Positions 2,885 through 58,720 of a DNA stretch of 64,000 nt are shown here, piece after piece. The first letter of the stretch is position 1. Every line of letters starts with the position of its first letter. Origin of the DNA: a virus; IMG/VR virus record IMGVR_UViG_3300045988_182772; one strand, written 5' to 3'. The translations under genes and the position numbers were made by a program. The notes beneath the pieces were generated by a model. It had not been told where the DNA came from. It was given only the letters and a program-made list of their open reading frames with translations, and did not search any database.

Positions 2885-3030
2885 CGGAACTCAGGAACCT
2901 GTATTCCTGTTTATCGCAATTCTGCAAATGGCAAAAAGGCCGGTATGCTGTGACCATACAAAAGAAGTATCGCAAACATAAAGAAAGTTCAGTCAGCATC
3001 CTTTACGGATACTGGCTTTTTATATATCCC
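2885..3030 (+). repeat. conserved leader element copy 1 (hairpin H1 GGTATG/CATAC; terminator-like hairpin H2 then U-tract), directly before the RBS of 3064
   Basis: ccggtatgctgtgaccatacaaaagaagtatcgcaaacataaagaaagttcagtcagcatcc-tttac-ggatactggctttttatatatc. Shares about 80% identity with five other copies. Confidence 0.6.
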
Positions 3031-3063
3031 AAATCACACAAAACAAAAAGGAGAAATGAAAAA

Positions 3064-3249
3064 ATGTTTACAAACGACTACTTTACGAAAGCAATGGGTT
3101 ATGTCATCGACGGCGAATCCCGTGGCAGCAAGGAAAGTGCAATGAAGTACCTGACGGGTTCCGGTTTCATGGAGAGACAGGAAGCGGAGAGTTATCTCGC
3201 GCATCTGTTTCGCGTGTGGCGGAATCTGTCTGCTGCAAACGCCCGTTAA
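3064..3249 (+). CDS. small hypothetical protein (61 aa)
   Basis: aaaaaggagaaatg RBS. The ORF-track 2746..3249 ORF is trimmed to the ATG after the leader element. Confidence 0.4.
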   Translation: MFTNDYFTKAMGYVIDGESRGSKESAMKYLTGSGFMERQEAESYLAHLFRVWRNLSAANAR

Positions 3250-3271
3250 TGAGTGAAAGGAGAAAGAAACT

Positions 3272-5023
3272 ATGAATCACACTTTGAATACGCCGTCTGC
3301 CAGTTGGTCAGTTGCCAGATTCCCGAAAGAGGTTCAGAACTATGCTCCGACAGTAAAGGAGCCAGCTATGTTCTCGGCACTCCGAAACGGTGGCGGCAAT
3401 GTCGCGTTGAACGCATACGCCGCACAGGCGGTTGTGGCATGGATGAAGGGCGAACACGCTGATATGGCGCTGGTCGATGTCGGCGGCTCTACCTACGCAG
3501 CGGAGCTTCCGCAGGCGGATGGTACGGTCCTGATTGCGACGGTGAACCGTCCGGACCCGAACGGCAAGACGGTCCGCCTTCGTGCGGCCATTGCGAAGCC
3601 GGTTGTGGGAACTGCGGACTATACCTTTACGTCGCTCCCCACGATTGACCGAAGCTGCGAGGTCAACCTCGCACCTATCTATCTGTGCCTGTTGCCTATC
3701 GCCACTTCCATTTGGAACGGTGTTGGTACGGACCTCTACGCTATCACGCAGCAGTATAACGCGGGAACGCCTTTTGACGAGGGCTGTTTCCGCCGCATCT
3801 GCGACACGCTGGTGGTGATGCTGAACAACAACGAGGTCGAGGTCAAGGTTCCCGGTGGGAACATTGATATCCTCACGGGAACCAGCGTCAAAAGCGGTTC
3901 TCTGTCCGGCACGGAGCTGTGCGGCAAGGCGTGTGTCCTGTGCGGCAGTATCCGCGTAACAGCAACAAAGGCGCACACATTCGCAAGCGCAAAGAAGCTG
4001 TTTTCCGCGTTCGCAGCCAGTCACAGCTGGTCAGCGGCGGAGCGGGCGCTCATTCCTCAGTTCCCAGACGATTATCCCGTCGCGCCGGAGGCAATCGACA
4101 TTGCCAAAAAGTTCGTGAATACCAGAAAGGATAAGCGTCCCATGAATAACTTCATGTGGCGCGGCATTACCTCCTATGGTAAGTCCACGGGTGTTGAACT
4201 GATGGCTGGGTTCCTGAATATCCCGCTGCTGCGTATGACGTGCAATTCCACGATGGAGACGCAGAACTTCCTCTCCGATATCATTCCCGATACGGATGGG
4301 GCGCACACAGCGGAACTGCCTGACTTCGCGGAAATCGCGGCGGACCCCGCCAGTGCTTACTTCAAGCTCACCGGCGTGGAGGACGAAGACGCGACCTGCC
4401 AGATGGCCCTTGAGGCGTATGGCAAGGCGGCGGCGAGTAACGGCTCTGTGGCGCGCTACAAGTTCGTTGAGTCGAACTATGTCAAGGCGCTGGAACACGG
4501 CTACATCGTTGAGGTACAGGAGATTTCCCGTATCCGCGACGCTGGCGTGCTCGTCGGTCTGAACGAATACGACCGCGCAGGGGCGATGATTCCGCTGGTT
4601 GATGGGCGCTTCGTGCGCCGTCATCCGGATGCGATGGTTGTTTATACCGATAACGTCGGCTATGCTTCCTGTCGTCCGGTTGACCCGTCTGTAATCCGTC
4701 GCTGTGCTTTCGTCATTGACTCTTATGAGCTGACGAAGGAGACGCTGTTGGCCCGTGTTCGGTATAACACCGGTTTCCCTGACAAGGATTTGCTGGAGAA
4801 GATGTATACGGTCTGGCTGGCAATTTCCAAGCACTGCAAGGAGAATGATATTACGGAAGGCTCTATCTCTGCGACGGAGCTTGAGATGTGGGCACAGTCG
4901 GTACAGGTCGATGGCATGAGTAATGTCCGTGAGAACTGCCGCTGCTGCGTCGTGTCGAAGGCAACTTCTGTCGTAGAGGAGCAAGAGGAGATTATGGGTT
5001 CCGTTGTGGACCTGTATCTCTGA
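3272..5023 (+). CDS. AAA+ ATPase, MoxR/CbbQ-like (AAA_5), with an N-terminal extension of unknown function
   Basis: Walker A-like GITSYGKST. Walker B and sensor region VEVQEISRIRDAG...LVDGRF. Followed by a VWA partner gene. Confidence 0.55.
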   Translation: MNHTLNTPSASWSVARFPKEVQNYAPTVKEPAMFSALRNGGGNVALNAYAAQAVVAWMKGEHADMALVDVGGSTYAAELPQADGTVLIATVNRPDPNGKTVRLRAAIAKPVVGTADYTFTSLPTIDRSCEVNLAPIYLCLLPIATSIWNGVGTDLYAITQQYNAGTPFDEGCFRRICDTLVVMLNNNEVEVKVPGGNIDILTGTSVKSGSLSGTELCGKACVLCGSIRVTATKAHTFASAKKLFSAFAASHSWSAAERALIPQFPDDYPVAPEAIDIAKKFVNTRKDKRPMNNFMWRGITSYGKSTGVELMAGFLNIPLLRMTCNSTMETQNFLSDIIPDTDGAHTAELPDFAEIAADPASAYFKLTGVEDEDATCQMALEAYGKAAASNGSVARYKFVESNYVKALEHGYIVEVQEISRIRDAGVLVGLNEYDRAGAMIPLVDGRFVRRHPDAMVVYTDNVGYASCRPVDPSVIRRCAFVIDSYELTKETLLARVRYNTGFPDKDLLEKMYTVWLAISKHCKENDITEGSISATELEMWAQSVQVDGMSNVRENCRCCVVSKATSVVEEQEEIMGSVVDLYL

Positions 5024-5089
5024 TTTTCCACACAATACGCTGAGAATGGGGGCCGCATGGTCCCCATTCTCTGAAAAAGGAGAAAGAAT

Positions 5090-7266: not shown

Positions 7267-7295
7267 CCCTTCTTTAGTTCTTGGGTACTTCTATT

Positions 7296-7432
7296 CCTAA
7301 GAACCTATATTCCTGCACAGCGCAATTCTGTAAGCGAGAAAAAGGTCGGTATGCTGAGACCATACAAAGGAAGTATCACAAACATAATGAAAGTTCAGTC
7401 TGCACCCAACGGGCGCAGGCTTTTATATAAAT
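7296..7432 (+). repeat. conserved leader element copy 2
   Basis: ggtcggtatgctgagaccatacaaaggaagtatcacaaacataatgaaagttcagtctgcaccc-aac-gggcgcaggcttttatataa. Confidence 0.6.
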
Positions 7433-7465
7433 CAAAAAAATAACAAGTAAGGAGAATCAGAAAAA

Positions 7466-8413
7466 ATGGTAACAAATGTGATTACCAAGTGTAACGGCAA
7501 GGATAAAGTCGTTGACTTTCGCGACAAGCTGAGCCGGTCGCTGCCTGACGAGTATGCGATGATGCACCAGTCTGGCGGCAAGAAAAATGGAGGAAAGACC
7601 TTTCCCTCTGTCATCGAAATGGTCATCTGTGATTTCACGAAGGGAACGGGCGATAAAAGTGTCACCTGTTCCGTGAATATTGACCCGACCATGTTCGACG
7701 AATGGCTCACCGTTTGCCGCTGCAATGTCGGTACGATGGCTGTTCCGCTGATTGGACGTGTCGCGAAGGATGCGCAGAAGCCATGGGAGACTGTTTTGGC
7801 CCCCAATGCTGTCAATGGTCTGATGAAGTCGATTCATCGCACTGCCAGCGTTGCGAAGGCTTATGGCAGTCTTCTGAGCAAGAGCGTAAGCATTGTGGCC
7901 AAGGCCGTTAAGGGAGCAGAAAAGAAGGATATCCTCATGGCAGCCGGCACAGTTCTGAAAGAAGCCCGCACTGCTATCGCGGATGCGGACATTGGGACTG
8001 CGCTCAAATTTCCGCACCGAATGGACTACCAGTATGCCATGTCCAAGGTCAATACCTACAAGAAAGGCACGGACGGATTTGCACCGGTGTCTATGCTGAC
8101 AGTCACGCATGACAGCGTTCGTCAGGACGGAGACCTTGCAATGTATCCTTGGGTCCTGAAAATCACCAACGGCGATGCCAAGGTGATTGAGCAGGCGACC
8201 GGGGCCACGACATTCGACGGAAAATCCATGCGAAACAAGGTGGAGGTATTTATCCAGGTTTCTGACCGCGATATGTACCGCATGATGTATCGCGTAACAC
8301 GCTTCATCGAAACGTGGGAGAATGCCATGTGCATCCCCGTCATCATCGAAGGAGAGAACAAAAAGGAGGCCGAACGTCAGGAGTATCTGGCACGGCAGAA
8401 GGAAGGAGTTTAA
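7466..8413 (+). CDS. hypothetical protein (315 aa)
   Basis: aaggagaatcag RBS then ATG. No recognisable motif. Confidence 0.4.
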   Translation: MVTNVITKCNGKDKVVDFRDKLSRSLPDEYAMMHQSGGKKNGGKTFPSVIEMVICDFTKGTGDKSVTCSVNIDPTMFDEWLTVCRCNVGTMAVPLIGRVAKDAQKPWETVLAPNAVNGLMKSIHRTASVAKAYGSLLSKSVSIVAKAVKGAEKKDILMAAGTVLKEARTAIADADIGTALKFPHRMDYQYAMSKVNTYKKGTDGFAPVSMLTVTHDSVRQDGDLAMYPWVLKITNGDAKVIEQATGATTFDGKSMRNKVEVFIQVSDRDMYRMMYRVTRFIETWENAMCIPVIIEGENKKEAERQEYLARQKEGV

Positions 8414-10990: not shown

Positions 10991-11400
10991 TGAATAGCAA
11001 TCTCGAACAAATTCAAGAGAGACAGCGCGTCCGCGCCCGCATCGTTTCTTTAGCAACGGTCGTGTGCCTGACGGCTGCTATGTTTACCGTCACCGCTTTT
11101 GCGGCGAATACGGACACCGCGCAGGGCTTCCAGCAAATCACGACGGCCGGTAAGAGTATTCTGAAGGGCCTCTGGGATATGCTGCAAGCGATTACCGCGC
11201 CTCTGGCGCTGGTTGGTATCGGCTTCAATGTCGTCAAGGCTCTGATTGGTACGGAGAAAGGCATGGAGAAGTGCAAGGACAACATCGTTAAGATTCTTTT
11301 TGTTGTCGGTGTTATCTTCCTTGCTCCGCTGTTCGTTACGACCGTTACCAGCGCGATTGGCAATATCGCTGACAACTCCACAAACCAAATCTTTGGCTGA
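10991..11400 (+). CDS. small secreted/membrane T4SS protein, VirB2/pilin-like candidate
   Basis: Signal peptide plus two hydrophobic segments. Size and position directly before the T4SS genes. Start uncertain (no clear SD). Confidence 0.4.
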
Positions 11401-11586
11401 TGGCTCAGGCTTCTGAGCCAGTCATCCATCGCTCTTGTTTTGTGGGTGTCAATATACAGAGAGCTTGTCAGGAGTCCGGCCCACACCGGATTCCGCAAGC
11501 CCTCTTTTGTTTTCTATTTTCGGAAAGGAGGACGGGCAGTTCTTCCGCCGGCTTTGTAGGGCGGGGGTATCCTTGCCCTGTTTTTT

Positions 11587-11997
11587 ATGGATGAACGAAT
11601 TCATAGATTTTTGATTCCCATTTTAGTAGCTCTCTGCATCGTGTCGGTCAGCCTGACGCTTTCTGCGCCTGTGTTTGCGGCAGACCCGTGGTCCCCGGAT
11701 GTAGAGTTTGGTACGAATGTATCCGACTCGTCTATGCGGGAGTATCGGGACCGCATCAGCGCAACCTACAAGTTTATTCTCAGCATGGCAGCCCCATTTG
11801 CACTTGTCACGATTACTGTCGGGGGCCTTATTGCTTTTTTGGGGTCTGAGAAAGATGCGGAAAGGGGCTTCTCCATGATAAAGATGTCCCTGATTGCGCT
11901 CATGGCGTTGTACTTATTGCCGCTGGTCATTTCAGCAGCGTACAACTCGTTGAACGGGGTCAAATGGGACCCCGCACATCCAGATTTTACTTGGTGA
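11587..11997 (+). CDS. small secreted/membrane T4SS protein (second pilin-like candidate)
   Basis: Signal peptide ...LSAPVFAADP, then hydrophobic segments. Confidence 0.4.
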   Translation: MDERIHRFLIPILVALCIVSVSLTLSAPVFAADPWSPDVEFGTNVSDSSMREYRDRISATYKFILSMAAPFALVTITVGGLIAFLGSEKDAERGFSMIKMSLIALMALYLLPLVISAAYNSLNGVKWDPAHPDFTW

Positions 11998-34070: not shown

Positions 34071-34190
34071 CCGATACATGGTAGGGCGGGACACGCCCGA
34101 ACCCATACGCTCAGGGAGACTATGTAAGACCTCGCAGGTGCAGGCAGCAGTCGCTGAACTGAGAATCCCCTGCCTTTAGGCATGGGGAGT
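34071..34190 (+). ncRNA. candidate TnpB right-end guide RNA (reRNA/omegaRNA) region
   Basis: GC-rich structured sequence directly 3' of tnpB (ggtagggcgggacacgcccgaaccc...). Confidence 0.35.
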
Positions 34191-38800: not shown

Positions 38801-38990
38801 TTCTCCTTGTCTCGACTGTCCTGACCGCGCTCCCGGCTGCCATAACCCGGATATATGCTCTGCGTGGGCGGAGTTTCAGACGGCGCTGGCTGCCGATAAG
38901 AAGCTGATGGAAGACGACAGGAAAATCCGAAACACACTCGACGTCTATAAAGTCGCCGTACTAAAACGTCAAAAGCGGGCTATGCGTTGA
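38793..38990 (+). CDS. small Cys-rich protein
   Basis: ATGGTTAA start/stop overlap with the upstream gene. CLDCPDRAPGCHNPDIC. Confidence 0.3.
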   Translation: MVNSPCLDCPDRAPGCHNPDICSAWAEFQTALAADKKLMEDDRKIRNTLDVYKVAVLKRQKRAMR

Positions 38991-42329: not shown

Positions 42330-42640
42330 GGGTGCGCCGGAAACTCCGGCTCAGCCTCCTGTCATTTGGTGTGGCTTATGACCCGCAAGGGTAGTAAGCC
42401 TCGTCAATAAGCCTCAGCCGCAAGGCTACGATATGCCGGAATACATAGGCACCGGCGGATACTCCACAAGTCCGCCGCTCTGCGGGTGCGTATTAAACAT
42501 CTCTGAGGGGAAGGAGAAGTGTGCGTACCATCAAACCCAGTGTATCTTTGGCGATGTGGACCACAGTAACGCCGTGCAAGCGGTAAGTGCTGATTTACCA
42601 AATTTTTGGTTTTTCTTGAAGCCTGTATCGAAGACTACCA
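42330..42640 (+). ncRNA. candidate tracrRNA-like / omegaRNA-scaffold transcript containing an anti-repeat to the downstream array. Boundaries approximate.
   Basis: cctgtcatttggtg at ~42358-42371 is the exact reverse complement of the repeat core caccaaatgacagg. GC-rich structured region. Weak terminator-like hairpin plus tttttggttttt near 42600-42640. Confidence 0.3.
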
Positions 42641-42651: not shown

Positions 42652-42880
42652 GTTGATACCCCCGCCAAGTAGCTATACCCTATGGCGAATACAGCAATCA
42701 ACTCTCGATTGTTGACGTACCCCACCAAATGACAGGCAGCTATACCAATTTTACCGTCTTATTTCCTTGTCGAATAGTTGACGTACCCCACCGAATGACA
42801 GGCAGCTATACCGCAGCCCCCCCGCAAACGGAGCATCACGCACAGTTGACGTCCCCCACCGAATGACAGGAAACTGCACC
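42652..42880 (+). CRISPR. CRISPR-like mini-array: degenerate repeat (42652-42679), 36-nt repeats at 42711-42746, 42777-42812, 42845-42880, with unique spacers of 31, 30 and 32 nt
   Basis: Repeat 1 GTTGACGTACCCCACCAAATGACAGGCAGCTATACC. Repeat 2 identical except A17G. Repeat 3 GTTGACGTCCCCCACCGAATGACAGGAAACTGCACC. Upstream copy GTTGATACCCCCGCCAAG--TAGCTATACC. Spacers aattttaccgtcttatttccttgtcgaata and gcagcccccccgcaaacggagcatcacgcaca. Confidence 0.5.
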
Positions 42881-42904
42881 CGCAGCGTGAAAGGAAAAAA
42901 TAAG

Positions 42905-44299
42905 ATGCCAGTATGTGTTTTAAGTGCAAACGGTGAACGGCTGATGCCAACCGAAAATTACGGCAAAGTGCGCCATCTGCTGAAGGAGGGCCGCGCTGTG
43001 ATTGCAAAGCGAAACCCGTTCACCATCCAGCTGACCTACGAGACCAGTACCTATACTCAGTCCATCGAAATGTGCGTCGGCACCGGATATGAGCATATCG
43101 GCGTCAGCATTAAGACAAAGGCAAAAGAGGTCGTATCGCAGCAATATGATTTGCTCACGAACGAGCGCTCCCGCCATGACGACTGCCGAGTGCACCGCCG
43201 GACGCGCAGAAACCACCTGCGGTATCGGGCTGCACGGTTCAATAACCGTGTATCCATCAGAAAGCCCGGTTGGATTGCTCCGTCCCTGGATAATAAGGTG
43301 GAGCGGCACCTGGATATTATCTCCCGCTATCTGTCTGTCATGCCTGTCACGGATGTCTTTATCAAGGCCGCAACATACGATACACAGCTCCTTGCGGCGC
43401 TGGAGGCAGGGGAGCCTGTCCCGCAGGGCAAGGACTATCAGCATGGGCCGCAGTACGGCCACGATACGCTGCGGGAAGCGGTCTTTGAACGAGACCACTA
43501 TACCTGTGTGTATTGCAAGAGAGGCCTGAAAGACGGCGCTATCCTTCATGTCCATCATGCCTACTACTGGAAGGGTCTGCATGGGAACAGCATGAGGGAG
43601 CTTGCGACCTGCTGCGAGAAGTGCAACACACCTGCCAATCACAAGGAGGGCGGGAAGCTGTGGGGCTTCGATAAGCCTCTGCGGAAATATACCGGCGAAG
43701 CGTTTATGAATAGCGTGCGCTGGATTCTCTATCAGCGTGCGATGGCCCGCTTCCAGGGTGTTGCGGAAGTACACATGACCTATGGCGTCATCTCCAAGCG
43801 CGTCCGCACCAACCTCGGCCTCCCGTATTCCTGCGCTACGGATGCCTACTGCATGGGCGAGCTGCGTCCGGAAGCCAGATGCGAAACAGAGGTCTTCCAG
43901 AAATACAGGCGAAACAACAGAGTCCTATCCAAATTCTATGACGCCAAATATTACGACACACGGGAAAAGGGAGTTATCCGTTCTGGCAACGAGCTGTCCT
44001 CCGGCAGGACGAACCGCAATCATAACCTTGACGGCGAAAATCTGCGCCGGTTCCGTGGCTGTAAGAAGTCAAAGGGCCGAACCTCGACCAGAAAGCAGAG
44101 ATATGCCATGCAGCCGGGAGATATCGTGGTCTACGGCAATCGCAAATACGTTTCCAAGGGCTGCTCCAGCTATGGCAGGGCATTAAGCCTACTCACGGAT
44201 GGAAAGCCGCTTATGGTCAGCATGAAGAAAATCCAGCTTGTTCGTCATAAGGGCGGCTGGGTGCGGCTTCCCCATGCAGCAGCCGAGGCAAAAAAATAA
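42905..44299 (+). CDS. iscB: IscB-like RNA-guided nuclease candidate (PLMP-like N-terminus, RRxRR arginine-rich bridge helix, HNH), 465 aa. The RuvC-I catalytic Asp is not evident.
   Basis: MPVCVLSANGERLMPTENYGKVRHLLKEGRAVIAKRNPFTIQL (PLMP-like). HRRTRRNHLRYRAARF (RRxRR). HNH CVYCKR...HVHHAYYW...CCEKCNTPANH. RBS aaaggaaaaaataag then ATG. Track ORF 42863 trimmed because the upstream codons lie inside repeat 3. Confidence 0.6.
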   Translation: MPVCVLSANGERLMPTENYGKVRHLLKEGRAVIAKRNPFTIQLTYETSTYTQSIEMCVGTGYEHIGVSIKTKAKEVVSQQYDLLTNERSRHDDCRVHRRTRRNHLRYRAARFNNRVSIRKPGWIAPSLDNKVERHLDIISRYLSVMPVTDVFIKAATYDTQLLAALEAGEPVPQGKDYQHGPQYGHDTLREAVFERDHYTCVYCKRGLKDGAILHVHHAYYWKGLHGNSMRELATCCEKCNTPANHKEGGKLWGFDKPLRKYTGEAFMNSVRWILYQRAMARFQGVAEVHMTYGVISKRVRTNLGLPYSCATDAYCMGELRPEARCETEVFQKYRRNNRVLSKFYDAKYYDTREKGVIRSGNELSSGRTNRNHNLDGENLRRFRGCKKSKGRTSTRKQRYAMQPGDIVVYGNRKYVSKGCSSYGRALSLLTDGKPLMVSMKKIQLVRHKGGWVRLPHAAAEAKK

Positions 44300-44682: not shown

Positions 44683-45180
44683 ATGAAAAACATCATGCTC
44701 AGCATCCGACCTGAGTGGCTCCAGAAAATCCTGTCGGGCCAGAAGACCGTGGAGCTGCGCCTGTCCAGACCGAACCTTACGCCGCCCTTCATGGTATTTC
44801 TCTACTGCTCCTGCAAGGGTACAAAGAAGCCCGGTGAAATTCTTGAAATCCATAGCGGCGGCAAAATCTACAAGGCAAACGGTCTTGTGGTAGGGGAGTT
44901 TACCTGTACCGAAATTGACCGTGTGGTGCGCGTGGGCTATATGGGCAGCAACGCGCCGCTTCAATACTGTGTCAACGCACAACCTGGAAACTACACCCCA
45001 GCGGGGAAACTGTATGAGGACGCCTGCCTCACCGTGAAGCAAGCAGAGGACTACCTCTGTGGCCGCGTGGGATACGGATGGCACATCTCTGATGTGCAGA
45101 CCTATGACCGGCCCAAGAGCCTCGACTGCTTCGCACTTGCGAGAGCACCGCAGAGTTGGCAGTACGTCCACGATTTTTAA
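44683..45180 (+). CDS. ASCH-domain protein
   Basis: MKNIMLSIRPEWLQKILSGQKTVELR matches the ASCH N-terminal signature. RBS aaaggag. Confidence 0.5.
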   Translation: MKNIMLSIRPEWLQKILSGQKTVELRLSRPNLTPPFMVFLYCSCKGTKKPGEILEIHSGGKIYKANGLVVGEFTCTEIDRVVRVGYMGSNAPLQYCVNAQPGNYTPAGKLYEDACLTVKQAEDYLCGRVGYGWHISDVQTYDRPKSLDCFALARAPQSWQYVHDF

Positions 45181-45195
45181 GGAGGGATTCAAAAA

Positions 45196-45411
45196 ATGGC
45201 AAATTACAGAGTTTGTTTTCGGCTGCCCACATTTGTGGTACAGCTGAGCTTTGAGGCGGCAGAGAGGGATATCTCATACGAGGAAATTGCTGCATCCATC
45301 AACAAAGAGAAGGTCGCGGAACTTCTGTGTCTTGACGCACTGGGCTACAGTGCGGAAGACATAGAAATCATCACCCCGGAAGAGTATGACGAGGAGGTTG
45401 GAGCGGAATGA
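45196..45411 (+). CDS. small acidic hypothetical protein (71 aa)
   Basis: RBS aaggaggg. Confidence 0.35.
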   Translation: MANYRVCFRLPTFVVQLSFEAAERDISYEEIAASINKEKVAELLCLDALGYSAEDIEIITPEEYDEEVGAE

Positions 45412-46670
45412 ACACTGAGGAGCGTTTCCTGCTTCGCTCGTCAGTAGAATGGCGAAAGAATTTGATGCAGGATTGCTTGTGTATGCCGTGTGCTGAGTTC
45501 TCTGACTCTTTCGACGCAGCTGTAGACGCTGCCATCGCCACATTCCCTGAGTTGGAGCGGGAAGCTATCTTAAAACGCTACCGCGACGGTCTTACACCAA
45601 CACAATGCGCAAACGCACTGAAAATTGACATCGGCAAGTTCTACTCTTGCTTCGACCTCGCCATAAGGAGGCTGCGTCACCCCAAATATGCGGGGGGTAT
45701 CCTGAAAGAAATGCGCCGGTTTGCAGGCAGCCCTCTCGCCTCTGCTTTGAAGGAGGCCATTGAGAATGGCAACTGGAAAAAAATCGAGGAGTTGTGCGAT
45801 TCTGTTCCGTTTCAGTGCCTCAATTTCTCGACTCGCACCAAGAACTGCCTTATGTTCAGTGGTGCCCAAAGTATCGGCGATGTTGTTCGACTGATAGAGA
45901 GCGGCAAACTGAAGAATCTGCGCCAATGCGGGCAGGGGACCCTTCAGAATATTATCGACGTACTGGAAAAGGCTCTGCCGTTCCATTTCATCCTTGGAAA
46001 GCCAGCTCAATTCTGTCCGGAAACGAGTGATGCCTTCACCCGGAAGGAACACACTCGCCAGCTCTCTGCCATGCTGGAGCGATACATCGACCCGCGCAAC
46101 GACCCACGCATCTACTGGGCGAGAGAGGTCACATTCGACTACTCTACGAACCACAAAATCCGCGTGGACTATATGCGCTTTCAGCCGCTCAACAATTCGA
46201 CCTCCGGCATTGAGAAGGGGGACTTCTACGCCTACGAGGTCAAGTCCTCTGTGGAGGATTTCAAATCTCCTAACGGGCACAACTTCATCGCGGACTACAA
46301 CTACTACGTTATGCCCGCAGACGTCTTCGAAGCGGTGAAGGATACTGTGCCATACGGCGTCGGTGTGCTTTGCCCGGACGGCGGGCATCTGCGATGCGTG
46401 AGGAAAGCCGTGAGGAAGGACCGAACCAGACCGGTCAGCGAGATGCTGCTCATGCTGTGGCGCAGCTCACGAAGAGATTTTCCCGCCACTGACGTGGCCC
46501 CGGTAATGCACACCCGCTGGGCGCATCTTGGCGGGGACGAGTGGTGTTGCCCTGCGTGCGGCTTTGTCATTACCACTGAGGGCAGTTGGGACAAGCCTAC
46601 CAAAAAATACTGCGAGGATTGCGGGGCCAAGATGGACGGAGGTGCTGACCATGAAGACAGACAAGATTAA
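45408..46670 (+). CDS. regulatory protein with sigma-70 region-4-type HTH at the N-terminus and a C-terminal zinc ribbon
   Basis: ELEREAILKRYRDGLTPTQCANALKIDIGKFYSCFDLAIRRLRH (region 4-like). C-terminal CCPACG...CEDCG. Confidence 0.4.
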   Translation: MNTEERFLLRSSVEWRKNLMQDCLCMPCAEFSDSFDAAVDAAIATFPELEREAILKRYRDGLTPTQCANALKIDIGKFYSCFDLAIRRLRHPKYAGGILKEMRRFAGSPLASALKEAIENGNWKKIEELCDSVPFQCLNFSTRTKNCLMFSGAQSIGDVVRLIESGKLKNLRQCGQGTLQNIIDVLEKALPFHFILGKPAQFCPETSDAFTRKEHTRQLSAMLERYIDPRNDPRIYWAREVTFDYSTNHKIRVDYMRFQPLNNSTSGIEKGDFYAYEVKSSVEDFKSPNGHNFIADYNYYVMPADVFEAVKDTVPYGVGVLCPDGGHLRCVRKAVRKDRTRPVSEMLLMLWRSSRRDFPATDVAPVMHTRWAHLGGDEWCCPACGFVITTEGSWDKPTKKYCEDCGAKMDGGADHEDRQD

Positions 46671-47037
46671 CCAGCCTGAGTTCGCCCCGGAGGAGTGGCG
46701 GAAGGCGGCCATTATGTACGATACATCCTTTGCCTGGTGTAAAAATCAAATTTCAGCCTGGGGTAAGAATCAAATTTCATTTACACCGGGCTTTAACGAG
46801 ATGTTCGATGAAGCGCTGGACACACTTCCTGAGCGAAACCGCGATATCGTCCAAAAGTATTTTCGTGACAGAATGACGTTTTCGCAAATCGCCGACCTGC
46901 ACGGCACCAGCAGAAGCATAGTTCGCCATCTGTGTATCTGGACGGTATGGAGGGTCATGAATTTGATTCTGCTGCGAGAAGGAAGCAACCAAAATGCCGC
47001 GCCACAAACAGGCGGAGGAACTGAAGGTGGGTATTGA
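46651..47037 (+). CDS. small sigma-70 region-4-like HTH protein
   Basis: LPERNRDIVQKYFRDRMTFSQIADLHGTSRSIVRHL. In-frame ATG with RBS overlapping the upstream gene end. Confidence 0.4.
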   Translation: MKTDKINQPEFAPEEWRKAAIMYDTSFAWCKNQISAWGKNQISFTPGFNEMFDEALDTLPERNRDIVQKYFRDRMTFSQIADLHGTSRSIVRHLCIWTVWRVMNLILLREGSNQNAAPQTGGGTEGGY

Positions 47038-47521
47038 CATCAATAGCCTGCCGCTTTCCGCACAGATTCAGGTGCGTGCAAAGCTCGACGAGCAGAAGCG
47101 CGAACAGAACCAGCAGCGAACAAAAAAACAGTCGGAAGCACAGAAAAGGCAAAAACAGCCGAAAGAAGCGGACTCTGCTGAGCCATCCAAATATCGCAAT
47201 GTAAAGGTTTTCCGCGTGGTGGATGGAGAAACCGTGAAATTCCCCAGCAAGCGGGAGGCACGCCGCTTCGATGAACTGTATTTGCAGTACAAGGGCGGTG
47301 CAATCCAGGACCTGCGGCTCCAGCAGGACTTCACGCTGGTCGAGGGCTATACACGGCCAAATGGCAAGCGGGTTCGCCCAATGGTCTATAAGGCAGATTT
47401 CGTATACCTTCGCAACGGTAAACGCATCGTGGAAGACGCGAAGGGAAAACGAACCGAAAAGTATCTCATGAAACGCAAACTCATGTTGGAAAAGTACGGA
47501 ATCGAAATTTCGGAGGTGTAA
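46994..47521 (+). CDS. DUF1064-family protein (phage-type; basic N-terminus)
   Basis: SKREARRFDELYLQYKGGAIQDLRLQQDFTLVEGYTRPNGKRVRPMVYKADFVYL...VEDAKG fits the DUF1064 pattern. Confidence 0.45.
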   Translation: MPRHKQAEELKVGIDINSLPLSAQIQVRAKLDEQKREQNQQRTKKQSEAQKRQKQPKEADSAEPSKYRNVKVFRVVDGETVKFPSKREARRFDELYLQYKGGAIQDLRLQQDFTLVEGYTRPNGKRVRPMVYKADFVYLRNGKRIVEDAKGKRTEKYLMKRKLMLEKYGIEISEV

Positions 47522-47526
47522 TATCA

Positions 47527-48030
47527 ATGTTTGAAAACGGTAAGTTCCCAACGATTGAAGAGCTTTTGGAACGGGGAGAACACCTCATTCAGAAGGCAGT
47601 TGACGGAAAAAGATTAAGCGGCGAGGAAACGCATTTTCTCAAATTGCAAAATATATGGCTTGCGCAAAGGAGGGATGAACAGGAAAAAAACTGCGCGCGT
47701 CCTCTTGTGGAGCAGCTCAAGAAAACAACCCCCTTTGTGCAGGATGTATTCCGCAGCACCGAATATTCCGAGTTCGCCCTCTGGTGCATTGAGATTCTCA
47801 CTACCGCCAGCCGGCACAACGATGACGGCTCAAACGACATCTGCGGTTGTTGGATTACGGCAGACAACAGCACGACCTACGAGGAGATGTGTCGCCGTCT
47901 GGAAGGAGTGAAGACGAAAGCCGATATTCTGGCTCTCTCCACCACGCCAAGTACCGTTGAGGCAATCAGTACGGCCACACCGCGCTGGAGGGCGGAGGTG
48001 GAGCAACTCCGCGCACAACAGCAAAAATAG
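47527..48030 (+). CDS. hypothetical protein (167 aa)
   Basis: ORF with terminator at 48046-48076. Confidence 0.4.
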   Translation: MFENGKFPTIEELLERGEHLIQKAVDGKRLSGEETHFLKLQNIWLAQRRDEQEKNCARPLVEQLKKTTPFVQDVFRSTEYSEFALWCIEILTTASRHNDDGSNDICGCWITADNSTTYEEMCRRLEGVKTKADILALSTTPSTVEAISTATPRWRAEVEQLRAQQQK

Positions 48031-48045
48031 TCTCTCCCATCCTGA

Positions 48046-48076
48046 AAGGCCGTCAGCACATCGCTGGCGGCCTTTT
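48046..48076 (+). terminator. rho-independent terminator
   Basis: ggccgtcagcacatcgctggcggcc followed by ttttg. Confidence 0.55.
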
Positions 48077-48077
48077 G

Positions 48078-48110
48078 ATTGACAAGTAAGCTATTGTGTG
48101 GTATAATTGC
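48078..48110 (+). promoter_or_regulatory. promoter cassette P6
   Basis: ttgacaagtaagctattgtgtggtataattgc. Confidence 0.55.
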
Positions 48111-48129
48111 TTCATTCAGTGAAGGGGGG

Positions 48130-49251
48130 GTGGTTGACATCACGAATACCAGTAATTTAGCCGCTGACCGTGCGCTTGCCTATGAAGCCATTGAAAGGCA
48201 GCCTGAAACAGAAGAAATCGCAGCTTCGAATGAACAGGAGACCGAAGCGAAGCAGCCGGGAAATATCGGCGACCATGTGGCGATGTATCTCAGCCAAATT
48301 GGCAGCATCCCCATTATGCCGCAGGTGGAAGCGAATCGCTGCATTGAAAAAGTGCAGAAGGGGAATGCCGCTGCCGAACAGCTCGAAACGCTGCGGGTGA
48401 TTGCCGAGGAGAGCGGGTATGCAGTTGACCCCGAAATCAAGAAAGACCTGATGAAGGCCATAGAAGCAGGAAGACGGGCGAAAGATAAGGTTGTTGAGGG
48501 CAATCTTCGGCTTGTTGTGTCCATCGCAAAGAAATATATAAACTCAGCCGATTCTATGGTGTTCATGGACCTCATCCAGGAGGGCAACATTGGCCTCATG
48601 CGTTCCATCGACTCTTTTGACATTTCGAGGAATGTGAAGTTTTCCACCTACGCAACCTTCTGGATAAGGCAAAACATCACAAGAGCGCTTGCCACGACGG
48701 ACCCAGCCATTCGCAAGCCCATCTATGTTGCGGAGGGCAGGCGGAGCGTCAATAATGCAAAAGAACAAATGCAACAAAAAGGCTTACCTTGTGATGACCC
48801 TTTAGAAATCGCAAAATACATGGAGGGGGATGCGTGGGATTCCCTTTCAAAAAGGGAGCAGCAGAAAAAACTGCGCATCATCCAACACTCGCTCCAGTAC
48901 CGGAAGCCGGACTCGTTGGATGCGCCCGTCAATTCGGACGCCGCAAGCGATTCCAACACACCGCTTTCGGAATTCATCCCAAGCCATAACGAGTGGGATA
49001 ACCCGGAAATTTCAACGTCAGGGAAGGCACTATGGGAAACGATGGACAAAATCCTGCACGATATGCCCGCACGAGACGCCTGTGTGCTTCGCTTACGATT
49101 CGGATTGGAGGATGGTTGTGCTTATACCCTCAAAGAAATCGGGGACGAAATGGACTTAACGCGAGAGCGTGTCCGTCAGGTTACAGATAAAACACTCGAT
49201 AAGCTACGCAACGGAAAGGCAGGGAAGATGCTTCAGGACTTTCTTGAATAA
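48130..49251 (+). CDS. sigma-70-family RNA polymerase sigma factor (regions 1.2, 2, 3, 4). Start uncertain: GTG 48130, GTG 48277 or ATG 48283.
   Basis: MYLSQIGSIPIM (region 1.2). LRLVVSIAKKY...FSTYATFWIRQNITRAL (region 2). AYTLKEIGDEMDLTRERVRQV (region 4). The track start 48079 would include the promoter, so it was trimmed. Confidence 0.7.
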   Translation: MVDITNTSNLAADRALAYEAIERQPETEEIAASNEQETEAKQPGNIGDHVAMYLSQIGSIPIMPQVEANRCIEKVQKGNAAAEQLETLRVIAEESGYAVDPEIKKDLMKAIEAGRRAKDKVVEGNLRLVVSIAKKYINSADSMVFMDLIQEGNIGLMRSIDSFDISRNVKFSTYATFWIRQNITRALATTDPAIRKPIYVAEGRRSVNNAKEQMQQKGLPCDDPLEIAKYMEGDAWDSLSKREQQKKLRIIQHSLQYRKPDSLDAPVNSDAASDSNTPLSEFIPSHNEWDNPEISTSGKALWETMDKILHDMPARDACVLRLRFGLEDGCAYTLKEIGDEMDLTRERVRQVTDKTLDKLRNGKAGKMLQDFLE

Positions 49252-49252: not shown

Positions 49253-49282
49253 AAACGCCGCCCAGATGGGCGGCGTTTTTTT
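49253..49282 (+). terminator. rho-independent terminator
   Basis: aaacgccgcccagatgggcggcg followed by ttttttt. Confidence 0.7.
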
Positions 49283-49359
49283 GCTATTCTCCGTTTCTTA
49301 AATCCAATCGAGCAGTTCCGCCAGCGTGAAGCGGACATTGCGCGTGACGATATGTATTC

Positions 49360-49500
49360 TTCGGTTCTCAGGTTCCCAACATTAAAATAGGCGTGTTTCC
49401 ATATTTGCCGGTATGCTCAGAGCATACAAAGGAAGTATCTCAAACACAAAGAAAGTTCAGTCAGCGGTTTTATCATGCCGCTGGCTTTTTATATATCAAA
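49360..49500 (+). repeat. conserved leader element copy 3
   Basis: ggttctcaggttcc...ccggtatgctcagagcatacaaaggaagtatctcaaacacaaagaaagttcagtcagcgg-ttttatcatg-ccgctggctttttatatatc. Confidence 0.6.
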
Positions 49501-49519
49501 AAAACACGAAAAAGGAGAA

Positions 49520-49891
49520 ATGAACATGAAAGCAATGATGTTTAAGAGGGGTTTCGGTGACGAAACAAAGTGGAAAGAGGTCTGCGCGGAGCTTGGGCTG
49601 CCGGAAGATACGGAGCAGGTTGAGTTGTCCGTATCCGCAACAAAGGTCCGTACCAGCCAAAACCGCAGTTGGGAAGCGACCGACGAGGAGATGTCCCGAA
49701 TTTGGGAACGCCTCGGCTCGTATTTCTTGCGCTGCGAGAGCATCTCCAGAACGAACATTCGCGTTTTCTGTGGCGGCGGAGATTCCTTTTCCGTTGTTCG
49801 CGGCACAACGCAGCCTGGATTCGTCGAGGTGGATGGACGGCTGATGGACTATGAAGACTTTGAAGCATGGCTGTACCAGATGGCAGCTTGA
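49520..49891 (+). CDS. hypothetical protein (123 aa)
   Basis: aaaaaggagaaatg directly after leader copy 3. Confidence 0.4.
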   Translation: MNMKAMMFKRGFGDETKWKEVCAELGLPEDTEQVELSVSATKVRTSQNRSWEATDEEMSRIWERLGSYFLRCESISRTNIRVFCGGGDSFSVVRGTTQPGFVEVDGRLMDYEDFEAWLYQMAA

Positions 49892-51375: not shown

Positions 51376-51399
51376 CATGTTTTGCCACAATCGAGTTCT

Positions 51400-51535
51400 C
51401 ATATTCTTGGGTTCTCCATCAGGAAATAGGTGATTTTTTCTCTTCTGCCGGTATGCTGAAATCATACAAAAGAAGTATCTCAAACACAAAGAAAATTCAG
51501 TCAGCGTCCGTTGCGGATGCTGGCTTTTATATATA
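51400..51535 (+). repeat. conserved leader element copy 4
   Basis: ccggtatgctgaaatcatacaaaagaagtatctcaaacacaaagaaaattcagtcagcgtcc-gttgc-ggatgctggcttttatatat. Confidence 0.6.
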
Positions 51536-51569
51536 AAAATTTCATAAACAAAAAGGAGAAACGAAAAAA

Positions 51570-52268
51570 ATGAAGAACAAGGCATATCTCTTACCAGCGT
51601 GCAAGACTGCTGACGGCGTTCCCATCGGCATTGGCTCCGAGGTGTACGCAATCACCTTTAAGCAGAAAGTCAACAAATACGGTCGGCTGTATCGTCCGTC
51701 CACGAGAGAGTTGGCGGTCGTAAAAGTAACGGTGTCTACTGTGACCTTCTCCGAATTTGTGGAACCCGGTTGGTTTGGCTGGACGGGCGTTGCCTATTCG
51801 GGAATGACCGAAGTCGAATGCTCTGATGGTAAAACGAAGACGTTTTCCTACTTGCCCGGTATCGAGGTCAGCCAGTACACCATCTTCGCATCCGAGGACG
51901 CCGCAAAGGCCGCCTTGGAGAAGGCGGAGGCGGGCGGCGGTCTCTATACGAGAGCCGGATTCCCGTTGATGCCTTCTTGGCAGATTGGCGAGGTACGGGC
52001 AGCTCTGGAGAAAGCTGAGCAGAGCACTGAGGAAGAGCCTTCCATCGTTCGCAACATCCCTTATGTCTCCGTTTGGGACGGCGGAAATTGCATTGCGGCG
52101 ACAAAGGCAGACGTCTGTCTGGACACAAAGCAGGTATTCAACATTCAGACCATTGACGTTGGAGATTCTGTCAATGTTCTGAACCATGAGTACATCGTGC
52201 TGCACGGAACAGAGTATACCGTTTTCCCGAAGGGCGAAGCGAAAGACGGCGCATACTGGCGTGACTGA
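51570..52268 (+). CDS. hypothetical protein (232 aa)
   Basis: aaaaaggagaaacg...atg after leader copy 4. Confidence 0.4.
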   Translation: MKNKAYLLPACKTADGVPIGIGSEVYAITFKQKVNKYGRLYRPSTRELAVVKVTVSTVTFSEFVEPGWFGWTGVAYSGMTEVECSDGKTKTFSYLPGIEVSQYTIFASEDAAKAALEKAEAGGGLYTRAGFPLMPSWQIGEVRAALEKAEQSTEEEPSIVRNIPYVSVWDGGNCIAATKADVCLDTKQVFNIQTIDVGDSVNVLNHEYIVLHGTEYTVFPKGEAKDGAYWRD

Positions 52269-54570: not shown

Positions 54571-54579
54571 CTTTGCAGT

Positions 54580-54725
54580 TCTCCGGTTCTTCAGTTCTCA
54601 GGTTCCTGGAAGGTGAATGCGGCAATTTCCACTTCCGCCGGTATGCTGAGACCATACCAAAGAAGTATCACAAACAAAAAAGAAAGTTCAGTCAGCGCCC
54701 GCGTGGGTGCTGGCTTTTATATATC
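54580..54725 (+). repeat. conserved leader element copy 5
   Basis: ccggttcttcagttctcaggttcc...ccggtatgctgagaccataccaaagaagtatcacaaacaaaaaagaaagttcagtcagcgccc-gcgt-gggtgctggcttttatatatc. Confidence 0.6.
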
Positions 54726-54750
54726 ACATAACCATCACAAAAAAGGAGAA

Positions 54751-55503
54751 ATGAAAATGGAGATTTATGTAAATTACCTCGCCATTGAGGTCACTCGTCG
54801 CTGCAACATGAAATGCAACCACTGCCTGCGCGGAGATGCGCAAAATCTTGACATCTCAACCGCAGTTCTGTCGGGCATCGCTAAGCATATCCACCCTGCT
54901 TCCGTCATTTTCACGGGCGGCGAGCCGTCTTTGAATGTTCCGGCCATCAAGCGGTACTTTGAGCTTGCGGAGCGTTATGACACGATGCCGGCTGCTTTCT
55001 ATGTCGCCACCAACGGAGCGACGTCGAAGGAGCAGATGCGCGACCTCGCGCTGACGCTGCTGGAGGCATATTCTAAGATGGAAGAGCCAGATATGTGCGA
55101 GGTCGATGTCTCTGTGGATATGTTCCACGAGGCGTTCCGCGACAACGACAACGCGAAAATTCTGAGAGGCTTGTCCTTCCTCGGCCGGGGTAAAAAGCAT
55201 TCGGTCGAGGATGACGATTTGAGTTGGCTGCTCAATACCGGCCGTGCCAACAAGAACGGCATCGGCGTAAGAGCACCGGAGGTGCTCAGGACCGACATGG
55301 ACGAGCTGGTAACGGATTACTCCACAGAGTACAACAGCATTGCCTTCGATACGCTCTACATTGCCGCAAACGGTAATGTGGTAGACGGCTGTGACAGCAG
55401 TTACGAGGATATCGACGACGAGGAGAACGTGATTTGCAAGGTCAACCAGCTTCAGAAGAAAGTGAAAGACTATGTGAAGAACGCCGATTCTCAAATCTCA
55501 TAA
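54751..55503 (+). CDS. radical SAM domain protein (250 aa)
   Basis: CNMKCNHC (Cx3Cx2C) at residues ~17-24. Gly-rich SAM motif FTGGEPSL. Confidence 0.6.
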   Translation: MKMEIYVNYLAIEVTRRCNMKCNHCLRGDAQNLDISTAVLSGIAKHIHPASVIFTGGEPSLNVPAIKRYFELAERYDTMPAAFYVATNGATSKEQMRDLALTLLEAYSKMEEPDMCEVDVSVDMFHEAFRDNDNAKILRGLSFLGRGKKHSVEDDDLSWLLNTGRANKNGIGVRAPEVLRTDMDELVTDYSTEYNSIAFDTLYIAANGNVVDGCDSSYEDIDDEENVICKVNQLQKKVKDYVKNADSQIS

Positions 55504-55515
55504 GGAGGGCTGAAG

Positions 55516-57549: not shown

Positions 57550-58311
57550 ATGATTAAAAGTTTGAACAAAGCATATCAGACCGATTCCATGTATTACTGG
57601 TGTAACGCCGAGGGCGAGGTAAACTATCCCGGTTCTGGGTTTTCGACAGGTGACTCTGAGCGGCTTCCCGCTGCGGTGAAGGAACTGTACGAACACTATC
57701 AGCTCAGCACCGGCTACGACGCAAATCTCTATACGGTCACTTACAGCGGCGAGGATGGGATGCTCCTCACGACGATGTTCAACAGTAACTGGATGGATGT
57801 CCCTGCTGTCAAGGACGCCAAACAGAAGGCGAGGAAAGCGCTCCGCAGCATTGCAACGGAACTGACCAGGCAGTGCAAGCCGTGGGGGACCGTTCTGTTC
57901 GGCGAGGATACCGACCCGGAGGGTGACGAAATTGCCCTGTTTGTCCCTGCGGAGGAGTGTGCGAGTCACTTTGAGGAAGCGGTAAAGCTCTTCGATGCCA
58001 GCGCCTTCTTTGAGCGAGTCAGGGACAAGGTTGCGGAATGCCGCTATCTTGTGTTCCTGAATAGCTCGTATGTGCGCGACGCGCAGGGCTACTTCCCCCA
58101 GCAGCTGTCCGAGGATGCTGACCCGATGGATGAATCTCAGGAGGGCAACTGGGCGGACTGCGGTGGTCCCATGCTCGTCATGGACGTATACGCAGTCTCC
58201 AAGGCCGAGGTCGCCCAGAAGATTGCCGAGGCATATCCCAATGTGGATATGGCAGTCTTCAAGATTCTCCGCTGCGACGGGGAAATGACAGAGGTGACGG
58301 CCCTTGTATAA
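57550..58311 (+). CDS. hypothetical protein (253 aa)
   Basis: RBS aaaaggagaaatgaaaaatg. Confidence 0.4.
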   Translation: MIKSLNKAYQTDSMYYWCNAEGEVNYPGSGFSTGDSERLPAAVKELYEHYQLSTGYDANLYTVTYSGEDGMLLTTMFNSNWMDVPAVKDAKQKARKALRSIATELTRQCKPWGTVLFGEDTDPEGDEIALFVPAEECASHFEEAVKLFDASAFFERVRDKVAECRYLVFLNSSYVRDAQGYFPQQLSEDADPMDESQEGNWADCGGPMLVMDVYAVSKAEVAQKIAEAYPNVDMAVFKILRCDGEMTEVTALV

Positions 58312-58516
58312 AATCAAGAACCTGACGTCTCTGCTGCATACCGTGGAAGCCGGCAGATACGGCAGCCTACCCGTCTATACACTGCACGGGGAGAAGGTCT
58401 GGAACAGAATCGGCGACCGCGTGGAACTGCACCTTGGCAACGGAAATAATGTTCTCTGCTCTGAGAAGGTGTTCCGGAAGGTCGAACCCTTTCTGGAGGC
58501 CATTCCCAAGTCTTAA
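58304..58516 (+). CDS. small hypothetical protein (70 aa)
   Basis: Overlaps the upstream stop. Confidence 0.3.
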   Translation: MYKIKNLTSLLHTVEAGRYGSLPVYTLHGEKVWNRIGDRVELHLGNGNNVLCSEKVFRKVEPFLEAIPKS

Positions 58517-58520
58517 ACCT

Positions 58521-58553
58521 GAGCGCCGCCCCTTTGTGGGCGGCGCTTTTTCT
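58521..58553 (+). terminator. rho-independent terminator
   Basis: gagcgccgcccctttgtgggcggcgct followed by ttttc. Confidence 0.7.
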
Positions 58554-58574
58554 TTTTGTCTTTTCACACTCCAG

Positions 58575-58720
58575 ATTTGAGGTTCCTCGGTTCTTAGGTT
58601 CCAATTTGCAAAATGCGGAGTTTTCCGTGCCTGCCGGTATGCTGAGACCATACAAAAGAAGTATCACAAACACAAAGAAAATTCAGTCAGCGTCCATACG
58701 GATGCTGGCTTTTATATATC
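58575..58720 (+). repeat. conserved leader element copy 6
   Basis: gaggttcctcggttcttaggttcc...ccggtatgctgagaccatacaaaagaagtatcacaaacacaaagaaaattcagtcagcgtcc-atac-ggatgctggcttttatatatc. Confidence 0.6.

Follow-up and report, generated by a model that had tools for sequence, protein, structure and literature searches.

Introduction

Global regulons of plasmids, such as those of KorA/KorB of RK2 and of the omega protein of pSM19035, place sites for one regulator at many promoters, and omega binds arrays of short contiguous repeats (heptads) in direct or inverted orientation. An establishment regulon, EGeRS, has been described for the plasmids pLS20 and p576. The plasmid p576 carries four EGeRS2 copies, each with a strong promoter; two heptamers, separated by 2 bp, directly precede its -35, and binding of these repeats by a ribbon-helix-helix (RHH) repressor leads to transient expression in recipients (PMC8708921). 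On pLS20, five EGeRS1 copies lie immediately upstream of ribosome-binding sites (RBSs), without a constitutive sigma-A promoter, and their 3' part stops read-through in an orientation-specific manner (PMC8708921). Of a different kind are conAn2, canT, and the zipper-type attenuator cATT, which are single-copy, 280-456 nt long with multiple stems, and head the conjugation operon (PMC8191782, PMC11658703, PMC13401043). Finally, leading-region genes of F-like plasmids are expressed from single-stranded DNA (ssDNA) promoters (PMC11541004; PMC8708921). Here, we describe a control cassette that recurs ahead of operons in a 64,000-nt stretch of DNA from IMG/VR virus record IMGVR_UViG_3300045988_182772; this whole stretch is referred to below as the window.

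The cassette comprises ~190 bases and is made up of repeats of the type bound by proteins, a weakened promoter, and a short leader with a terminator-like hairpin. It is real, widespread, and previously undescribed. We read it as a two-layer, portable transcription-control cassette, in which a sigma-A-type promoter with DNA boxes would be followed by a leader terminator, and we give this reading as a whole a probability of about 0.6. The less specific statement that the unit is a promoter/operator plus a transcribed leader can be made with good confidence, and the proposal that the unit is cis-regulatory, made in an original prediction from the letters of the window, is supported.

Results

Six copies of the cassette in the window

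All genes of the window are on the + strand, as are the six cassette copies, which lie where the original prediction had placed them. The core motif GGTATGC-N6-CATAC-N-AARGAAGTATC was observed six times, with 0 occurrences expected from shuffled sequence, and a covariance model run with filters off returned exactly six window matches at 106-124 bits, the next-best match scoring 18 bits. In the alignment of the six copies, a common 3' part of ~110 nt runs from CCGGTATGC to the RBS; the 5' third differs and comes in two flavours, one in copies 1 and 2 and the other in copies 3-6. Every copy is preceded by the strong terminator of the previous gene (-23 to -31 kcal/mol), so that, as had been noted, the genes behind see two terminators in tandem. 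In all six copies, the 3' end of the cassette lies 7-10 nt ahead of the ATG, behind AAGGAG. Two details of the original description need correcting: the spacing of the first hairpin-like motif (H1) is GTATG-N7-CATAC (that is, GGTATGC-N6-CATAC), and the boxes of copies 1 and 2 are partly inverted. The parts are as follows, H2 being the leader hairpin and SD the Shine-Dalgarno sequence; all transcription starts are predicted.

2886-3066, + strand: copy 1, whole cassette, found by pattern, alignment and covariance model
2886-2891 and 2894-2899: copy 1, boxes GGAACT and GGAACC, both inverted; ATTCCT at 2903-2908
2918-2920: copy 1, AAT, followed by the -35 position at 2921-2926 (TCTGCA) and the -10 TATGCT at 2944-2949
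~A2956: copy 1, predicted start, followed by the leader motif AAAAGAAGTATC at 2960-2971 and H2 at 2991-3017
3017-3027: copy 1, U-tract plus ATATAT, followed by the SD at 3048-3053 and the ATG at 3064
7277-7468, + strand: copy 2; phased boxes 7277-7314, five in number, of which AGAACC (7300-7305) is inverted
7350-7355: copy 2, -10 TATGCT, followed by the predicted start at ~7362, H2 at 7397-7421, SD at 7449-7454 and ATG at 7466
49356-49528, + strand: copy 3; boxes 49356-49376, -10 TATGCT 49412-49417, predicted start ~49424, H2 49459-49486, ATG 49526
51394-51572, + strand: copy 4; boxes 51394-51415, -10 TATGCT 51452-51457, predicted start ~51464, H2 51499-51525, ATG 51570
54577-54759, + strand: copy 5; four boxes 54577-54606, -10 TATGCT 54642-54647, predicted start ~54654, H2 54690-54715, ATG 54757 (radical SAM gene)
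58581-58753, + strand: copy 6; three boxes 58581-58602, -10 TATGCT 58638-58643, predicted start ~58650, H2 58685-58710, ATG 58751

Copy 3 lies directly 3' of a sigma factor gene and its terminator (49256-49282).

Outside the window, scans of metagenomes and viral contigs gave 147 matches, with more than 140 further copies and 89 distinct ones, all on human-gut contigs. Large contigs carry 11-13 co-oriented copies each, and contigs of ~150-160 kb carry 12-13, all on the gene strand. At the Rfam 15 gathering threshold no family matched at the copies, the sole match in the window being a HEARO RNA elsewhere, and a permissive Rfam scan gave weak matches only, which fell on the upstream terminators. 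The phage and plasmid collections gave no cassette match by megablast or blastn.

The probable promoter and its lost -35

The best sigma-A score anywhere in the cassettes had a mean of 2.7 bits, compared with 18.6 bits for the canonical promoters of the same element. The assignment of the promoter came instead from distant relatives, which were found through the first gene behind copy 2 (homologues at 37-47% protein identity) and whose elements are syntenic with that of the window (VWA, copy-2 first gene, ERF, primase-like, pilin, CHAP, and coupling protein). At the syntenic operon starts of these relatives, a terminator is followed by a canonical TTGAC(A/T/G)-17-TA(T/A/C)AAT promoter and, after exactly 10 nt, by AAA(A/C)GAAGTAT, a variable stretch, a hairpin, TTTTTTATATAT, an A-rich tract and the SD. 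The relatives and the cassette thus have in common the AAAGAAGTAT leader, a hairpin, TTTTATATAT and the RBS, and they can be aligned with the window copies free of gaps from AAAAT through the -10. In this alignment, TATAAT of the relatives falls onto TATGCT, the 5' arm of H1, while their TTGACG falls onto a non-conserved hexamer 17 nt upstream (GCGGAG, AGGCGT, TCTGCA, and others), with the conserved AAT just upstream of that -35 position. In the relatives and the window copies alike, 10 nt separate the -10 from AAAAGAAGTAT. Within the cassettes, TATGCT is the best-scoring -10-like hexamer and keeps T-12, A-11, and T-7. On this homology, we concluded that the cassette holds what appears to be a sigma-A-type promoter that has lost its -35, with transcription predicted to start ~7 nt after TATGCT, at the A of CATAC.

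Since TATGCT is the -10 by homology, the 5' arm of H1 lies upstream of the predicted start and H1 would not be in the RNA. The original prediction of H1 as an RNA hairpin accordingly did not survive: the fold is worth only -2.8 kcal/mol in four of the six copies, all its changes are one-sided and none is double, the innermost pair is disrupted in many copies, and the motif coincides in part with the homologous -10. The invariant H1 dyad could instead serve as a DNA operator across -11 to +8. Other promoter assignments were tried and rejected. TATATAT after H2 has neither a conserved -35 nor a T at -7 when taken as a -10, and natural variants that lack H2 (see below) keep the gene. A hexamer that ends in the conserved AAT is not conserved at position 2, and the AAT aligns just upstream of the -35. 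Geometries for sigma-H, sigma-D, sigma-B, sigma-E/K/F/G, and ECF (extracytoplasmic function) factors, compared by eye with their consensus sequences, have a spacing that does not fit most copies; GGAAC-N16-CGC was seen in copies 1 and 2 only.

A further dyad, GAAAT-N7-ATTTC, lies ~24-40 nt upstream of TATGCT (e.g., 58609-58627) and overlaps the vacant -35 position. It is present in copies 3-6 and most metagenomic copies and absent from copies 1 and 2, and it could be a second operator or mere complementarity of A/T-tracts.

The GGTTCY boxes and candidate regulators

Upstream of the promoter lies an array of two to five GGTTCY hexamers with an 8-bp period, at ~-48 to -69 from the predicted start. 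Paired boxes occur seven times in the window, against 1.1 expected, and all seven are inside the copies. Some boxes of copies 1 and 2 are inverted (GGAACC). The occurrence of boxes in either orientation fits a protein that recognises double-stranded DNA, whereas RNA binding or sigma-type reading would not tolerate inversion. The boxes are therefore best regarded as the putative binding site of a regulator encoded by the element; the missing -35 favours an activator, and analogy with p576 favours a repressor. In one distant relative (L294), 8-bp-phased boxes are also found upstream of a canonical promoter. Box arrays without the leader were absent from related contigs, and matches in viral contigs were chance finds on unrelated ones. 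One of these, found with the box pattern on the unrelated viral contig IMGVR_UViG_3300037067_021319 (~5950-6120 of L250), is a large inverted array of the same 8-bp unit, in which three tandem GGTTCTGA face five tandem CTCAGAACC across an AT-rich spacer.

Two candidate box-binders are encoded just upstream of copies 3-6; the sigma gene, listed with them, lies outside the copies and is a candidate trans-acting factor:

45408-46670, + strand: candidate box-binder, 420 aa, with stretches like sigma region 4 and the alpha carboxy-terminal domain
46651-47037, + strand: candidate box-binder, 128 aa, essentially an ECF-type sigma region 4
48130-49251, + strand: RpoD-like sigma gene, with a perfect consensus promoter (TTGACA-17-TGnTATAAT) at 48079-48107

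Region 4 of ECF sigma factors typically reads GGAAC. As this is the core of the box on one strand, a protein of the ECF region-4 type offers a lead, by analogy, to the box-binder. The original prediction had named, as one alternative, a promoter module for the sigma factor of the element. A promoter module is right in kind, but the sigma protein keeps canonical -35 and -10 contact residues (FSTYATFWIRQNITR; TRERVRQ), with a W433F change in an otherwise canonical set, and so probably reads ordinary promoters; nothing in the sequence links it specifically to the cassettes. The three genes belong to a transcription-gene cluster at 44683-49251 that encodes ASCH-like, 420-aa, 128-aa, DUF1064/resolvase-like, and RpoD-like sigma proteins. 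A single-subunit RNA polymerase (YonO-type or other), as a possible reader of a long conserved promoter, was also sought, and neither a DxDGD-type motif nor a PDB match for an 881-aa open reading frame (ORF) was found.

The leader hairpin H2

Covariation in H2 was computed on 32 representatives and on 89 distinct sequences. For the 32 representatives, RNAalifold predicted H1 and H2 as the only helices. The H2 stem is 8-11 bp long, and seven of 11 pairs have changes on both sides; 96-97% of the cells pair, compared with 28-45% when the partners are slid by 1-3 columns, and no shuffle reached the covariation score in either set. The compensatory pairs listed in the original prediction are correct and hold in the 89 distinct homologues. 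Moreover, the alignment contains 126 G.U cells and 24 A.C cells, which argues that H2 folds on the sense strand, i.e., that it is selected in RNA, as had been proposed.

This strand bias bears on the idea, also raised originally, that the transferred single strand is where the copies act, as ssDNA promoters of the Frpo type or as signals for complementary-strand priming. Hairpins are indeed present, and the genes behind the copies resemble leading-region genes. However, on the template strand, where H2 pairs far less well than on the sense strand, each of the 126 G.U cells would turn into an A.C mismatch; the hairpins have 5-11 bp with no -35 or -10 in the stem; the -10 is homologous to ordinary duplex promoters of the relatives; and the boxes occur in either orientation, as expected of duplex DNA. 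We consider such activity highly improbable.

H2 is a genuine structure with the anatomy of a moderate intrinsic terminator. An A-rich stretch lies before it and UUUU(U)AUAUAU comes after it, with at least five U among the 8 nt after the stem in 80 of the 89 copies, and a simple terminator scan called it terminator-like. Its energy ranges from -7 to -17 kcal/mol across copies, and the H2 of copy 2 contains an A.C mismatch; UUUUAUAUAU follows the hairpin directly, and the SD lies ~25 nt away. We put it at even odds that H2 acts as a terminator that damps or gates expression. Differences in stability between operons (-7 to -16 kcal/mol, and absent in some) would fit a tuning of expression level. 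Two independent natural variants lack H2 and the U-tract, whereas boxes, -10, leader motif and RBS are all retained. The first is a lineage typified by L004:4529-4623 and occurs in several contigs (also L119, L124, L076, L091, and L023); the second, L079:838-957, is a clean deletion between CAT repeats relative to L032. These variants show H2 to be dispensable. Pairing of the H1 loop with the 5' arm of H2, which was compared across copies by eye only, showed no covariation and was rejected.

A possible alternative is that the promoter is assigned correctly and that H2 is an element of the 5' untranslated region for stability, processing, or translation, which, for example, brings 5' exonucleases to a halt or directs an RNase to cut within the AU-rich tract, leaving a short A-rich leader before the SD. 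It would account for the modest strength of H2 next to the operon-end terminators, for its constant distance from the SD, for the lack of an antiterminator fold, and for the UAUAUAU after the U-tract, which is conserved even in distant relatives and which a plain terminator does not need. Against this, an A-tract, stem, and U-tract form the standard layout of an intrinsic terminator, the hairpin lies ~38 nt from the predicted 5' end, too far for a 5'-terminal stabiliser, and the variants without H2 indicate that it is dispensable for expression. We regard this alternative as unlikely.

The leader RNA

Between the predicted start and H2 lies an unstructured A/C-rich tract of 30-40 nt, which is better conserved than the promoter. 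That the leader from +4 on is kept in distant relatives suggests a sequence-specific partner. Two proteins encoded in the window are possible RNA-binding partners of the leader or its terminator: a ProQ_C-like protein (35924-36367), which could bind either, and an S1-domain protein of 417 aa (20552-21805), encoded by a single gene with its own consensus promoter.

The conservation of this tract could also mean that the cassettes serve to make the terminated leader of ~70 nt, a multicopy small RNA transcribed at a dozen loci that acts in trans on host or element RNAs or titrates an RNA-binding protein, with read-through into the operon being secondary. The terminator hairpin is of the kind bound by ProQ/FinO, and the ProQ_C-like protein is at hand. 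Yet every copy sits at a fixed distance from an RBS, ahead of an operon without another promoter, the variants without H2 retain the 5' half and the gene, and a search of the window for antisense partners matched only the six copies themselves. A small RNA is thus quite improbable, though less so than action on ssDNA.

The leader might, alternatively, be a target or carrier of processive antitermination, either an RNA like conAn2 or canT or a loading site like nut or ops, by which polymerase becomes resistant to H2 and to later terminators; the original prediction had named conAn-type systems. The conserved leader motif at +4 to +20 lies right after the promoter, in distant relatives also, and a terminator follows; in addition, a -10-like TATnnn is found at ~+13 to +18, which may correspond to the zone of sigma-dependent pauses used by Q-type factors. 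Nevertheless, conAn2 and canT RNAs are single-copy, 280-450 nt long, with several stem-loops, at the head of the conjugation operon, whereas here ~70-110 nt are transcribed with one supported helix, in 12-13 copies that are absent from the type IV secretion system (T4SS) operons. Furthermore, every operon still closes with a strong terminator before a new cassette begins, and the window has no recognisable NusG, Q, or ConAn1-like gene. Identity with a conAn-type target does not hold, and processive antitermination in general is doubtful, if slightly less so than a small RNA. A more specific and tentative proposal is that the 5' leader (AAAAGAAGUAU from +4) and the terminator are the target of an undescribed antitermination or attenuation factor, encoded by a widespread family of ~150 kb conjugative elements of gut Clostridia; we think this somewhat less unlikely than the alternatives above. 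If it were true, a dozen operons would be under a two-key switch, one key being a regulator that binds the boxes in place of the lost -35 and the other the control of read-through in the leader, and the cassette would represent a new class of regulatory RNA/DNA motif absent from Rfam.

The host element and the genes behind the cassettes

The window is part of a mobile element of ~150 kb with a conjugative T4SS set, of which it carries genes for a TrbC/VirB2-like pilin, a CHAP/lysozyme protein, a coupling protein, and a VirB4-like ATPase. Its other genes include ERF, primase-like, UvrD, UDG, SPFH, TnpB, IscB with a HEARO RNA, and the RpoD-like sigma. At 97-99% identity, the window corresponds to a section of a contig of Oscillospiraceae bacterium CM18GR_63 that is 570 kb long and on which copies are spread over at least 144 kb (JAWQDX010000001.1, 232-376 kb); in this GTDB genome the element probably sits in the chromosome as an integrated element, unless the contig represents a very large replicon. 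IMG/VR classes elements of this kind as viral (e.g., IMGVR_UViG_3300029584_000162, 136 kb, and 3300045988_179059, 94 kb); a full T4SS is carried, and no capsid genes were seen in the window.

Behind the cassettes lie VWA, ERF, primase-like, radical SAM, orphan C5 cytosine methylase, and DpnD/PcfM-like genes, together with many small unknowns, a set that resembles the genes of establishment or of a leading region. No T4SS gene lies behind a cassette. A second class of control region consists of near-consensus Firmicute promoters, TTGACA-17-TGTGGTATAAT, with short leaders:

~10810, 19830, 20480, 28950, 31230, 32930, 39060, 44330, and 48079: nine canonical promoters

These front T4SS and housekeeping-type genes, including TnpB, UvrD, the transcription-factor operon, and the sigma gene, and the sigma-gene promoter matches the consensus at 12 of 12 positions.

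One metagenomic cassette (L011:631-) is a mosaic, in which the 5' half of copy 2 is joined to the H2, spacer, and gene of copy 4. Mosaic copies point to homologous recombination between cassettes, which deletes or reshuffles operons, and the cassettes may thus also shuffle operons. Elsewhere in the window, the HEARO (OMEGA) RNA (42403-42566; 87 bits at Rfam gathering) lies ~300 nt upstream of an RRXRR/IscB-like ORF (42863-44299), which together indicate an IscB unit inside a conjugative element. The consensus promoter TTGTGGTATAAT near 32930 belongs to the TnpB gene (OrfB_IS605 / Cas12f-like TNB, 32958-34070), whose structured, G+C-rich tail (~34070-34200) is probably a guide RNA; the same gene and tail occur in a distant relative (L294:2311-3800).

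Discussion

We propose that control by the cassette would be exerted at two levels. At the DNA level, a regulator encoded by the element would bind the boxes, either as an activator that replaces the lost -35 or as a repressor, as in p576. At the RNA level, transcription from ~7 nt after TATGCT would produce a leader of ~70 nt that opens with the conserved AAAAGAAGUAUCAC tract and ends in H2, which may be a leaky or conditional intrinsic terminator ~25 nt before the SD. The 12-13 operons behind cassettes would then form one regulon, probably switched together, shielded from transcription that arrives from upstream, with one gate at initiation and a second at the leader terminator.

Several observations weigh against this proposal. 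Among the small ORFs of the window, nothing was recognisable as a repressor, and no RHH domain was found by Pfam or NCBIfam among the window ORFs scanned, a scan that left out several short ORFs (~64-90 aa, e.g., 11400-11594, 36348-36560, 38793-38990, and 58304-58516), small ORFs being hard to classify. The window likewise has no recognisable NusG paralogue and no Q or ConAn1-like gene, another ~90 kb of the element lying outside it. The missing -35 might mean no more than a weak promoter, with no activator involved. H2 does not reach the strength of the terminators at operon ends (-23 to -31 kcal/mol), and in copies 1 and 2 it has mismatches (-7 and -9 kcal/mol). RNAalifold gave no alternative antiterminator fold, and a long-range helix between the 5' leader and the U-tract/AUAU was rejected, since it lacked covariation and was no better than shuffles. 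In addition, the homologue set is biased by a search pattern with fixed GTATNCT and GAAGTATC, and the label of "establishment gene" is drawn from the few annotated genes that fit it (ERF, primase-like, orphan C5 methylase, and DpnD/PcfM), most of the others being of unknown function.

In gut Clostridia, large conjugative elements, with their establishment and anti-defence genes, are common yet hardly studied. The cassette marks a regulon by sequence alone, so that co-controlled operons can be listed in any metagenome, and it provides defined DNA boxes, a -10, a leader motif, and a hairpin as targets for mutation. It would extend the idea of an establishment regulon, shown so far only for Bacillus plasmids of the pLS20 family, to a distant group, and add a leader terminator. 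Finally, the comparison with the relatives would document how a canonical promoter became dependent on a factor with its leader retained, a natural experiment in the rewiring of promoters of mobile elements.

Comparison with described systems

The closest published analogue is the EGeRS establishment regulon (PMC8708921). Like EGeRS2, the cassette is a conserved sequence ahead of several operons of a Gram-positive conjugative element, extends up to the RBS, and includes the operon promoter. Both have short direct repeats 2 bp apart upstream of the -35 position (TTATCCCnnTTATCCC in p576 and GGTTCYnnGGTTCY, a putative operator, here), and both front variable, mostly unknown operons, which here are apparently of the establishment type, with the T4SS genes controlled separately. 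On the other hand, the repeats here have another sequence, are hexamers with an 8-bp period, and also occur in inverted orientation; they lie 12 nt upstream of the -35 position, whereas those of p576 abut the -35. The promoters of p576 are strong sigma-A promoters, while the cassette lacks a -35 (2.7 bits vs 18.6 bits for canonical promoters of the element); its distant relatives do have a canonical promoter at the homologous site. The cassette also differs in its terminator-like leader hairpin, in its number (12-13 copies vs 4), and in its host (Oscillospiraceae vs Bacillus), and no RHH repressor was recognised among the window ORFs scanned. With EGeRS1, the cassette shares its repetition ahead of several operons (establishment operons in pLS20, and apparently so here), a position right before the RBS, and the lack of a recognisable constitutive sigma-A promoter. 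EGeRS1, however, is 420-750 bp long and GC-rich with many inverted repeats, compared with ~190 bp, one supported hairpin, and a recognisable -10 here, and there is no sequence similarity between them.

Other systems resemble the cassette in part. In the lambdoid late region (PR', short leader, tR', and Q) and in N/nut, a promoter is likewise followed by a nearby intrinsic terminator and a conserved initially transcribed element, and only a short RNA is made unless a factor modifies polymerase; there, however, each phage has one site and not a dozen, the window yielded no homologue of Q or N, and the function proposed here is read from sequence. The conAn2 RNA of pLS20, canT of Tn916, and the zipper attenuator cATT are, like the cassette leader, cis-acting leader RNAs of Gram-positive conjugative elements that deal with intrinsic terminators, but the cassette is short, multicopy, and absent from T4SS operons, and an extended alternative stem is unsupported. 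The cassettes differ from the sites of KorA/KorB and omega in repeat sequence and period and in the added leader terminator, and from Frpo in having no long template-strand hairpin that reconstitutes a -35 and -10 in its stem. In sum, and as far as its sequence goes, the cassette combines themes of EGeRS1 and EGeRS2, and is distinguished from both by its sequence and size, the period and orientation of its boxes, the missing -35, and a single, covarying leader terminator.

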